NCBI RefSeq assembly: GCF_013167455.1
Contig: NZ_CP038328.1
DNA from: Escherichia coli O157:H7
GTDB taxonomy: Bacteria > Pseudomonadota > Gammaproteobacteria > Enterobacterales > Enterobacteriaceae
Direction: 5' to 3' (one strand)
Length of the DNA: 64,000 nucleotides
Shown here: positions 24,872-44,370 of the stretch, one piece after another
How positions within the stretch are numbered: position 1 is the first letter of the stretch
Layout of the letters: each line of letters begins with the position of its first letter
Made by a program: the position numbers and the translations under genes
Notes under the pieces: generated by a model
The model's input: the letters and a program-made list of their open reading frames with translations, nothing else
The model's database searches: none
Told to the model about the DNA's origin: nothing

Positions 24872-26167
<1,296 letters not shown>

Positions 26168-26267: not shown

Positions 26268-28202
26268 TTAAGACGATTTACGTACGCGCAAATACCATTC
26301 GCACAGTAAACGCACCTGTTTACGGGTGTAGCCTTTTTCCATCATACGGTCGACAAAGTCGTCGTGTTTCTTCTGCTCGTCGGTTGACGTTTTGGCGTTA
26401 AACGAGATAACCGGCAACAGCTCCTCGGTATTGGAGAACATTTTCTTCTCGATAACCGTGCGCAGTTTTTCATAGCTGGTCCAGTTCGGATTGCGTCCGC
26501 TGTTATTGGCTCTGGCGCGCAGTACGAAGTTAACAATCTCGTTGCGGAAATCTTTTGGATTACTGATCCCCGCCGGTTTCTCGATTTTCTCCAGCTCGGC
26601 GTTAAGAGACTCGCGGTCAAACAGCTGCCCGGTATCCGGATCGCGATACTCCTGATCCTGAATCCAGAAATCCGCGTAGGTAACATAACGGTCGAAAATG
26701 TTTTGCCCATATTCGGAATAGGATTCAAGGTAGGCCGTCTGGATCTCTTTGCCAATAAACTCGGCATATTTCGGGATCAGATAACCTTTCAGGAACTCCA
26801 GATAGCGTTCTGCCTGCTCTTGTGGGAACTGCTCGCGCTCGATCTGCTGTTCCAGGACGTAGAACAGATGGACCGGGTTTGCCGCCACTTCTACATGATC
26901 GAAGTTGAACACGCGGGAGAGGATCTTAAACGCAAAACGCGTCGACAGACCGTTCATACCTTCATCGACACCGGCGTAGTCACGATATTCCTGATACGAC
27001 TTGGCTTTGGGATCGGTGTCTTTCAGACTTTCGCCATCATAAACCCGCATCTTTGAATAAATGCTGGAGTTTTCTGGCTCTTTCAGGCGCGAAAGAATGG
27101 AAAAACGTGACAGTGTTTCGAGAGTGCCAGGGGCGCATGGGGCGTGAGTCAATTCACTGTGATTAAGCAATTTCTCGTAGATTTTGATCTCTTCGGAAAT
27201 GCGCAAGCAATACGGCACCTTCACGATGTAAACACGATCGAGGAAGGCTTCGTTGTTTTTGTTATTACGGAAAGTGACCCATTCGGACTCGTTCGAGTGG
27301 GCAAGAATAATCCCGTTGAACGGCAGGGCGGAGATACCTTCCGTCCCGTTGTAGTTACCTTCCTGAGTGGCGGTTAACAAGGGATGCAGCACTTTTATCG
27401 GTGCTTTAAACATCTCGACAAATTCCATGATCCCTTGGTTGGCGCGGCACAGCGCACCGGAATAGCCGTAGGCGTCCGGGTCATTCTGCGCGTAATGTTC
27501 GAGTTTACGAATATCGACTTTCCCAACCAGCGCGGAGATGTCCTGGTTGTTCTCATCACCGGGTTCCGTTTTGGCGATAGCAATTTGTTGCAGAATTGAC
27601 GGCCAGACCTTCACTACCCGGAACTTAGTGATATCGCCACCAAATTCATGCAGGCGTTTTGCCGCCCACGGCGACATGATGGTGCCGAGATAACGGCGAG
27701 GAATGCCATACTCTTTTTCCAGAATCTGCGCATCTTCCTGCGGATTGAAAAGACAGAACGGATGATCGTTGACCGGGCTACGCTCACCGTTGGCGCTCAA
27801 TACATAAATCGGTACGAGCTGCATTAATGATTTCAGTCGCTCAGCAAGCGATGATTTACCCCCACCCACAGGCCCCAGCAGATACAGGATTTGTTTCTTC
27901 TCTTCCAGCCCCTGAGCCGCGTGTTTCAGATAAGAGACAATCTGTTCAATCGCGTCTTCCATGCCGTAAAACTCTTCAAACGCCGGATAACGTGCAATGA
28001 CCCGGTTAGAAAAGAGTCGAGAAAGTCTGGGTTCCTGGGCTGTATCGACCATGACAGGCTCACCGATAGCCATCAATAGCCGCTCAGCCGCGTTGGCATA
28101 AGCACTGCGATCTTGCCGACAAGTGGTAAGAAACTCCTGCAGTGTGAACTCTTCGTCCTTGGCAGCTTCATATCGCTGGCGATAGTGATCGAATATATTC
28201 AT
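26268..28202 (-). CDS. yeaG: PrkA-family serine protein kinase YeaG
   Basis: 644-aa ORF; Walker A (GPVGGGKSS). Confidence 0.85.
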   Translation of the reverse strand: MNIFDHYRQRYEAAKDEEFTLQEFLTTCRQDRSAYANAAERLLMAIGEPVMVDTAQEPRLSRLFSNRVIARYPAFEEFYGMEDAIEQIVSYLKHAAQGLEEKKQILYLLGPVGGGKSSLAERLKSLMQLVPIYVLSANGERSPVNDHPFCLFNPQEDAQILEKEYGIPRRYLGTIMSPWAAKRLHEFGGDITKFRVVKVWPSILQQIAIAKTEPGDENNQDISALVGKVDIRKLEHYAQNDPDAYGYSGALCRANQGIMEFVEMFKAPIKVLHPLLTATQEGNYNGTEGISALPFNGIILAHSNESEWVTFRNNKNNEAFLDRVYIVKVPYCLRISEEIKIYEKLLNHSELTHAPCAPGTLETLSRFSILSRLKEPENSSIYSKMRVYDGESLKDTDPKAKSYQEYRDYAGVDEGMNGLSTRFAFKILSRVFNFDHVEVAANPVHLFYVLEQQIEREQFPQEQAERYLEFLKGYLIPKYAEFIGKEIQTAYLESYSEYGQNIFDRYVTYADFWIQDQEYRDPDTGQLFDRESLNAELEKIEKPAGISNPKDFRNEIVNFVLRARANNSGRNPNWTSYEKLRTVIEKKMFSNTEELLPVISFNAKTSTDEQKKHDDFVDRMMEKGYTRKQVRLLCEWYLRVRKSS

Positions 28203-43222: not shown

Positions 43223-44239
43223 TTAATCATCCGGCGTCAGTTCGCCGCGCAGGTTTTGGCTCATGGCCTTGCGAATGGTTTCAGTATCCAGTTCCTGGCT
43301 AAGCAGGTAATGCAGTTTGGTTAGCGTGGCTTCTACAGTCATATCTGCACCGCCAATAACGCCAGCATGGGCGAGGGCGTTACCGGTGGCATAACCACCC
43401 ATATTCACTTTACCGGACATACATTGTGTCAGGTTGACCACCACAATACCGCGATCGCTGGCTTCTTGTAATTCCTGCAGGAAGGCTTTGTTTTGTGGCG
43501 CATTACCCACGCCATAGGAGCGCAGAATCAATGCTTTCACCGGTTGGCGCAGAAAATTGCGCACGACGTCAGCAGAAATCCCTGGATAAATCGTCACTAC
43601 GCCAATTGGTTGTGGGGTGATTGGATGTACGATCAATTCCCCTTCACCGTGCGGGGCGGGTGGCGTATTCAAACGACGAATATGGATACCTGCTTCCAGT
43701 AACGGAGGAAGGTTTGGAGAGGCAAACGCATCAAAACCATCGGCATGGGCTTTGGTAGTGCGGTTGCCGCGATACAGTCGGTTATTAAAAAAGAGTGTTA
43801 CTTCGTTGATCGGATAATTCGCCGCAACGTACAACGCATTCAGCAGATTAATTTGTCCGTCAGAGCGTAACTCAGCCAGCGGGATTTGTGACCCTGTCAC
43901 AATGACCGGTTTACCGAGATTTTCGAGCATGAACGACAGCGCAGAGGCGGTATACGCCATCGTGTCGGTGCCGTGCAGAATGACAAAACCATCATAGTCG
44001 TCATAGTGCGCTTTAATATCTTCAGCAATATGCTGCCAGTCTTCCGGCGTCATATCTGAAGAATCCATCAGCGGCGTATATTCATGAATGGTGAAATCTG
44101 GCATCTCCGGGCGATGGAATTCCGGCATCAGCGCCAGTTGGCGTTGTAGATGACCTGACACCGGTATATAACCCTGCTCGGAACGCTGCATCCCGATGGT
44201 CCCGCCCGTGTAGGCAACGTAAATTGATTTCTTTTGCAT
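43223..44239 (-). CDS. ansA: Cytoplasmic L-asparaginase I
   Basis: 338-aa ORF MQKKSIYVAYTGGTIGMQRS...; recognised. Confidence 0.9.
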   Translation of the reverse strand: MQKKSIYVAYTGGTIGMQRSEQGYIPVSGHLQRQLALMPEFHRPEMPDFTIHEYTPLMDSSDMTPEDWQHIAEDIKAHYDDYDGFVILHGTDTMAYTASALSFMLENLGKPVIVTGSQIPLAELRSDGQINLLNALYVAANYPINEVTLFFNNRLYRGNRTTKAHADGFDAFASPNLPPLLEAGIHIRRLNTPPAPHGEGELIVHPITPQPIGVVTIYPGISADVVRNFLRQPVKALILRSYGVGNAPQNKAFLQELQEASDRGIVVVNLTQCMSGKVNMGGYATGNALAHAGVIGGADMTVEATLTKLHYLLSQELDTETIRKAMSQNLRGELTPDD

Positions 44240-44328
44240 GATATTGATATGAATGATATCGAAAGAGCAAAAGTATATACGTGAGGGGCAGCGAGCGCAC
44301 CTGGATACTCTGTGGATATGAGAAAAGT

Positions 44329-44360
44329 CCGGCAGGACGGAGGGATTAGTGTCCCGCCGG
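44329..44360 (-). terminator. Intrinsic terminator immediately downstream of the extra ORF (44371..45093)
   Basis: ccggcaggac-ggagggattagt-gtcccgccgg stem (one G-U pair) followed on the minus-strand transcript by ACUUUUCU; the same 8-mer also precedes the hairpin. Confidence 0.5.
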
Positions 44361-44370
44361 AGAAAAGTGG

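Follow-up and report, generated by a model that had tools for sequence, protein, structure and literature searches.

Introduction

Rho-independent terminators of the Enterobacteriaceae are formed by a G+C-rich stem followed by a T-rich tract, and they lie on the coding strand a few nucleotides past the stop codon. Examples for comparison are the terminators behind sppA, which read GTGGCCGAC...GTCGGCCAC followed by ATTATTTTTT in Escherichia coli K-12 and CCCCTCTTC...GAAGAGGGG followed by TTTT in Citrobacter. Certain other inverted repeats of enterobacterial DNA are mobile or highly repeated. The ends of IS1, IS10/Tn10 and IS50/Tn5 come with 9-bp target-site duplications, so that there, as in miniature inverted-repeat elements, an inverted repeat sits directly inside a 9-nt direct repeat, and the REP/BIME palindromes of E. 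coli, which are short, G+C-rich and 3′ intergenic, occur hundreds of times per genome. A further arrangement is the Hfq-binding module of small RNAs, SgrS and RyhB among them (Ishikawa et al. 2012, described in PMC4509938), in which a U-rich stretch, a terminator hairpin and a U-tail follow one another; according to PMC4509938, the module needs at least seven terminal U.

Here we analyse a hairpin in E. coli O157:H7 that resembles each of these systems in part. It lies between a SIMPL-domain gene and ansA in the window (the whole 64-kb stretch of DNA under analysis) and is tightly flanked by two copies of a direct repeat. From its sequence and that of its relatives, the hairpin is most likely an intrinsic terminator, although an atypical one, of this strain-variable gene for a lipoprotein-like protein, and the repeat is most likely a lineage-specific oddity of the E. 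coli allele that carries the gene.

Results

Structure of the hairpin and its flanking repeat

The features of the locus are as follows.

43223-44239, minus strand: ansA (asparaginase 1), the downstream gene
44320-44328, minus strand: downstream (3′) copy of the 9-nt direct repeat, read in the transcript as ACUUUUCUC, a U-rich tail directly past the hairpin
44329-44360, minus strand: terminator-like hairpin, stem 44329-44338 and 44351-44360, loop 44339-44350 (12 nt)
44360-44368, minus strand: upstream (5′) copy of the 9-nt direct repeat, inside the 10-nt gap between stop codon and stem
44371-45081, minus strand: SIMPL/DUF541-domain gene (236 aa, GTG start after GGAG; PF04402, E = 4.9e-18)
45161-45183, minus strand: hairpin behind sppA, GTGGCCGA...TCGGCCAC, common to both alleles of the spacer
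45197-47053, minus strand: sppA (signal peptide peptidase A), the upstream gene

The gene pncA lies on the minus strand too, together with sppA, the SIMPL gene and ansA. RefSeq annotates the SIMPL gene product as WP_001030441.1, SIMPL domain-containing protein, and the 1.2 kb of the window that was tested is 100% identical to NZ_AP018488. The N-terminus of the protein (encoded at 45010-45081) contains ..LGLGISAC.. and resembles a lipoprotein signal peptide with a lipobox. Four codons before the annotated GTG lies an ATG that overlaps the ribosome-binding site GGAG; this ATG is not kept in E. albertii or E. fergusonii.

The SIMPL gene ends with a TAA codon at 44371-44373, which leaves 10 nt to the stem. 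The coordinates of the hairpin, its 10-bp stem, this spacing and the octamer on each side, as given in the initial annotation, were all confirmed. The two flanking copies are indeed identical, but the repeat is 9 nt long (GAGAAAAGT) rather than 8, and the minus-strand RNA reads ACUUUUCU-hairpin-ACUUUUCU. An eleventh stem pair is possible (U-A, 44361 with 44328), and with that position included the inverted repeat spans 44328-44338 and 44351-44361 (11 nt, 91% complementary). In minus-strand RNA the stem comprises 10-11 bp with seven G-C pairs and one G.U pair. The latter falls on the sole imperfect position, A44334/C44355, which would be an A.C mismatch on the plus strand. Folding of an 86-nt minus-strand RNA yielded -25.7 kcal/mol (z = -3.2 against shuffles); the fold shows no internal pairing in the 12-nt loop. 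The hairpin alone reaches -18.6 kcal/mol in the sense orientation versus -15.8 kcal/mol in antisense. Within the 64-kb window GAGAAAAGT occurs only in these two copies, where 0.34 are expected, and 4 of 100 shuffles contained at least two.

The SIMPL gene and the age of the locus

The SIMPL gene was found in 943 of 5,426 complete E. coli genomes, and the SIMPL-negative genomes that were sampled carry a 166-nt K-12-type spacer between sppA and ansA. The closest protein homologues beyond E. coli belong to E. albertii (86-87% identity), E. fergusonii (70%) and two Logan lineages (66-68%). Wherever the flanks are visible (E. albertii, E. fergusonii and two further lineages), the homologous gene lies between sppA and ansA, indicating that it entered the spacer before those lineages split. 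Retrieval with AnsA gave 79 other species-level representatives outside E. coli. Among these, E. albertii has the SIMPL gene, and in 74 sppA lies within about 50-250 nt of ansA; the typical distance is about 50-90 nt, and the terminator there is unrelated. Four show wider gaps that hold other content, and on two short contigs sppA is outside the view.

Several spacers hold other cargo (loci L015 777-3000, L064 2311-2838, L055 and L082). That of C. werkmanii (Citrobacter) contains an AraC/DJ-1-type regulator gene and an EamA transporter gene, a Klebsiella MAG carries a TnpB-like ORF (Cas12f1-like TNB domain), and Raoultella species have spacers of 400-500 nt. E. coli strain 100248 has a 711-bp IS200/IS605-family insertion with tnpA (L003, about 1641-2351, corresponding to about 45190 in the window), which lies between the sppA stop codon and the hairpin and adjoins the T-run of the sppA-proximal hairpin.

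Comparison of the O157 and K-12 alleles revealed flanking genes that are 98-99% identical, whereas the spacer pieces beside the indel (44240-44330 and 45160-45199) are only 71-74% identical, a divergence as great as that of either allele from E. albertii. Such a K-12-type spacer points to an old presence/absence polymorphism and not to a recent insertion in O157. Directly before the ansA ATG, 45 nt (44240-44284) are 100% identical between O157 and K-12, and the two-allele polymorphism is sharply bounded, by about position -46 of ansA on one side and by the sppA stop codon on the other. On the evidence of these alignments, K-12 carries an ancient allele without the SIMPL gene. The gene had initially been termed extra; relative to K-12 it is so, but it is not a recent insertion, since it occupies the locus in E. 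albertii, E. fergusonii and the two lineages as well.

It had further been proposed that a comparison with the K-12 spacer would place the junctions of the insertion. The exact breakpoints could not be placed, but the comparison did show that homology on the ansA side runs through the downstream repeat copy and ends at the base of the hairpin (K-12 ATATTTCCTTATCCGCATAGTATC versus O157 ACTTTTCTCATATCCACAGAGTATC, 19/25 identical). The downstream copy is homologous to sequence in the K-12-type spacer (ATATTTCCTTATCC...) and in E. albertii (GCTTTCCT). Global and local alignments of the 44 K-12-specific nt with the hairpin or the rest of the O157 segment gave no demonstrable homology.

Variation of the hairpin in E. 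coli and its relatives

The hairpin occurs in 943 of the 5,426 E. coli genomes, once in each, which is the same number as carry the SIMPL gene, and 591 of the 943 depart from the 65-mer of O157 at about one base. In three aligned non-O157 strains a G>A change at 44336 creates a second G.U pair in minus-strand RNA and a second A.C mismatch on the plus strand. With this allele the sense hairpin holds at -15.7 kcal/mol, whereas the antisense strand refolds. Four variant proteins (P0004, P0005, P0011 and P0017) were considered as intermediate taxa and rejected as mere frameshifted or truncated E. coli copies; each of their loci carries one of the two known hairpin alleles.

E. albertii has an orthologous hairpin in the same register, in which two pairs are compensated (G-C to A-U), and for one of these the G.U allele of E. 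coli is the intermediate. In the E. coli/E. albertii alignment 94% of the cells pair in register, against 18-52% when the partners are slid. The covariation itself is not significant, since 82 of 500 shuffles reach it and only three distinct sequences are available, and it is suggestive support, from aligned sequences, for a hairpin in minus-strand RNA. Taken together, mismatches that are G.U on the minus strand and A.C on the plus strand, the behaviour of the G>A allele and the E. albertii register indicate that the hairpin is a structure of minus-strand RNA. In E. fergusonii, L093 and L103 (the latter two being lineages) a different, unrelated hairpin with a T-rich tail lies about 50 nt or less past the SIMPL stop codon, each of the three having its own. 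A hairpin with a T-rich tail thus follows the SIMPL gene across lineages, which suggests that a terminator at this place is a maintained feature.

The repeat behaves differently from the hairpin in that it was seen only in the SIMPL-positive allele of E. coli and not in E. albertii, E. fergusonii, L093 or L103. In E. albertii the upstream flank matches it at 2 of 8 positions and the downstream flank (GCTTTCCT) at 6 of 8; as the hairpin region overall is only about 50% identical between the two species, so weak a match in the upstream flank does not stand out significantly. In 942 of the 943 genomes neither copy varies, which says little given how low the diversity within the species is. The exception is strain 2013C-4465 (L005), the sole genome of the 943 in the 90-95% identity band for the 65-nt segment, which has a 4-nt insertion in the upstream copy at about 44360 (GAGA on the plus strand, a CT-slippage in the sense direction). 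This slippage in one strain indicates that the upstream tract is mutable.

Frequency of such repeats around inverted repeats

The repeat around the hairpin had been regarded as unusual for an ordinary terminator. As a background we took about 600 kb of enterobacterial DNA and counted flanking direct repeats that are 8 nt or longer and lie no more than 2 nt from the stem. Among 395 inverted repeats whose stems have 10 bp or more, 2 had such a repeat, the present hairpin included, and among 2,798 with stems of 8 bp or more there were 8, a rate of 0.25-0.5% of comparable inverted repeats. For the present hairpin p is about 0.003, and about 0.08 cases are expected over the 30 comparable inverted repeats of the window; by a lenient definition there are three such cases in the 64-kb window alone. 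For any single hairpin the repeat is therefore uncommon (about 0.3%), but it is unremarkable to a reader who scans 64 kb. The background scan also picked up two weak inverted repeats of the window with 8-bp stems (25028-25050 and 27320-27344) that have direct repeats of 8-9 nt on their flanks.

The background of 0.25-0.5% implies that chance or one small local mutation is sufficient to account for the origin of the repeat, although at about 0.3% per hairpin for an exact 9-mer pure chance is not a comfortable explanation. The downstream copy would then simply be the U-tract of the terminator, and the upstream copy a T-rich stretch of the gap whose identity to it is due to chance or to a single small mutation at the site. 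The upstream copy has no demonstrable role.

The hairpin as a putative intrinsic terminator

The hairpin has much of what a terminator requires: it forms a stable G+C-rich stem-loop on the coding-strand RNA just past a stop codon, and an equivalent structure is found at orthologous loci. It shares with Rho-independent terminators of the Enterobacteriaceae the order of G+C-rich stem and T-rich tract, and its stability (-15.7 to -18.6 kcal/mol) is in their usual range. It departs from them in the loop, which at 12 nt exceeds the short loop of 3-8 nt that forms the consensus of the terminator scan, and in the interrupted U-tract ACUUUUCUC. The core ACUUUUCU has four consecutive U and is interrupted, and the tail ACUUUUCUCAU contains five U among its first eight positions, four of them consecutive, making it weaker than the K-12 sppA tail. 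The identical 9-mer on the 5′ side is a further difference from bidirectional terminators, which would carry an A-tract there. A consensus promoter/terminator scan of the site did not list the hairpin, owing to the long loop and the run of only four U.

The earlier description as a canonical intrinsic terminator holds in its noun, given the position, the strand-specific G.U, the stable stem, the T-rich tail and the equivalents in relatives, but the loop, the interrupted U-tract and the absence from the consensus scan do not allow the adjective. The G.U pair on the minus strand, the E. albertii register and the occurrence of a hairpin with a T-rich tail in each lineage make an intrinsic terminator the most likely reading. 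We infer termination from these features and consider it quite probable that the hairpin and ACUUUUCUC together form the Rho-independent terminator of the SIMPL gene, with the 9-nt repeat standing outside any mobile or junction structure. Covariance models of Rfam, run over 43900-45500 up to E = 10, gave no match, and a literature search returned nothing on the sppA-ansA spacer or on direct repeats around terminators.

At such a terminator RNA polymerase would pause on the U-rich stretch, the G+C-rich stem of 10-11 bp would fold in the emerging RNA, and release of the transcript would follow about 75-80 nt short of the ansA start codon. Shielded from read-through, ansA would rely on its own conserved promoter region. 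The sequences directly after the sppA hairpin bear on what else may end here: they are ATTATTTTTT in the K-12-type allele and ATTTTTTT in E. fergusonii, both with a T-run in the sense strand, and ACTCCTGAATCGG in O157 and GCTCCTGATTCGG in E. albertii, both without it. In O157 (45161-45189) ATTTTT stands on the opposite strand instead. With no sense-strand T-tract behind this hairpin, sppA transcripts are expected to run on into the SIMPL gene, and the two genes may be co-transcribed in O157. As the sppA-proximal hairpin of the O157 allele has no U-tract, the terminator behind the SIMPL gene would probably also end transcripts that began at sppA.

Alternative origins of the repeat

The differing tails behind the sppA hairpin also enter the best surviving alternative, which derives the K-12-type allele from the SIMPL-positive one by loss of the segment from one CCAC to another, that is, from the end of the sppA hairpin to past the SIMPL stop codon. 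By the deletion the upstream copy (TTTTCT) would have come to lie immediately past the sppA hairpin and supply it with a new U-tract, so that the two repeat copies would be the U-tracts of two terminators, the upstream one corresponding to the T-run of K-12 sppA. As expected on this account, a T-tract is present behind the sppA hairpin in K-12 and absent in O157, and a dynamic programme that allows one deletion, when it fits the K-12 spacer to O157 or to E. albertii, sets the best breakpoints exactly at both CCAC; the breakpoint score profile is nearly flat, however (346 versus 330-343). The 58 nt of K-12 and the 55 nt of the O157 repeat-hairpin-repeat are collinear (global alignment z = 3.5, p = 0.002), but p rises to 0.02 once the last 14 nt, which are clearly homologous, are left out, and to 0.10 for the 34 nt that face the hairpin, and local alignments are not significant (P = 0.1-0.96). 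Furthermore, the SIMPL gene and a T-run behind the sppA hairpin occur together in E. fergusonii, from which it follows that the T-run of K-12 may be the ancestral U-tract of sppA. We consider a deletion of this kind unlikely.

An alternative in which the repeat acts in the RNA holds that the two U-rich copies are RNA-protein contacts and that the 3′ end of the SIMPL mRNA is a 3′-UTR fragment bound by Hfq or ProQ. The order of U-rich stretch, hairpin and U-tail is the layout of the Hfq module in PMC4509938, with an internal U-rich ACUUUUCU directly 5′ of the stem, and the copies hardly vary among the 943 genomes, an invariance that carries little weight at such low within-species diversity. Compared with the module of SgrS and RyhB, the tail here has four consecutive U and not the at least seven that are called for there, the 10-nt gap between stop codon and stem has no room for a seed region, and the upstream stretch is not conserved in E. 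albertii or in other lineages; nor is there a match in Rfam. The short U-run and the missing conservation make a bound 3′-UTR fragment very unlikely.

Less probable still, and highly so, is that the hairpin arose as a miniature palindromic insertion of about 31 nt with the 9-nt repeat as its target-site duplication, a reading akin to the small palindromic element suggested in the initial annotation. An inverted repeat directly inside a 9-nt direct repeat does resemble a pair of transposon ends with its duplication, and such flanking repeats are rare around inverted repeats. In contrast to the insertion sequences and miniature elements with that arrangement, the present unit is 31 nt long and single-copy, and its inverted repeat predates its direct repeat; it is shorter than the known miniature transposable elements. 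One copy is present in each of the 943 genomes and none in the other 4,483 E. coli, and no copies were found in 72,556 plasmid and 50,697 phage records. REP/BIME palindromes, which are likewise short, G+C-rich and 3′ intergenic, differ in being found hundreds of times per genome where this hairpin is found once, and it shows no evident sequence resemblance to the REP consensus. The relatives show neither an empty site nor an element with its duplication; E. albertii has the hairpin in register without a flanking repeat, from which the hairpin must be older than the repeat. Being single-copy per genome, and present in E. albertii without the repeat, the hairpin lends no support to the idea of a small palindromic element.

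A metagenome scan with the stem and a variable loop returned only unrelated G+C-rich hairpins with other loops and flanks and with no flanking repeat of at least 7 nt. Tandem-hairpin repeats in five of these loci (L134, L192, L201, L206 and L221) were rejected as relatives, as they have the stem in common through the search pattern alone. They are alphaproteobacteria-like and contain a dispersed two-hairpin repeat, CCGGCGGGACAGCGCCCCCCTCTGTCCTGCCGG ACATCTCCCCC..GGGGGGAGAT, with differing upstream flanks and no match in Rfam.

Finally, that a SIMPL cassette inserted between sppA and ansA and left the repeat as a junction scar, an origin also raised at the outset, is scarcely credible: sppA and ansA are indeed separated by only about 50-90 nt and an unrelated terminator in other Enterobacteriaceae, and the demonstrable homology of the two E. 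coli alleles does stop at the hairpin base, but that short gap places the insertion before the Escherichia species split, hence before E. coli, while the repeat exists only in E. coli and is missing from E. albertii, and a duplication should bracket the whole allele-specific segment of about 830 nt, at the sppA end of which no copy of GAGAAAAGT is found, both copies lying 40 nt apart (copy to copy) within 49 nt at its ansA-proximal end, the downstream one in sequence shared with K-12.

Discussion

The sppA-ansA spacer looks like a recurrent insertion site, and in Escherichia one of its occupants is a gene that is followed by a hairpin with a T-rich tail in every lineage compared. That the repeat around the E. 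coli hairpin is functional, be it as a contact module of the Hfq/ProQ type or as a spare U-tract for a clean deletion of the SIMPL gene, with which the K-12-type allele would have originated, is unlikely. If it did serve as a spare U-tract, the sppA hairpin would at once regain a working terminator upon deletion of the SIMPL gene. Unless the deletion or the RNA-binding reading is true, the repeat gives no handle on a new mechanism, and the importance of the finding beyond annotation is small.

For annotation, the analysis adds a probable terminator to a SIMPL-domain gene of O157:H7 that was annotated but uncharacterised. It also corrects the view of the locus: the SIMPL gene is an old resident of the Escherichia sppA-ansA spacer, and the K-12-type spacer, which lacks it, is an allele just as old.
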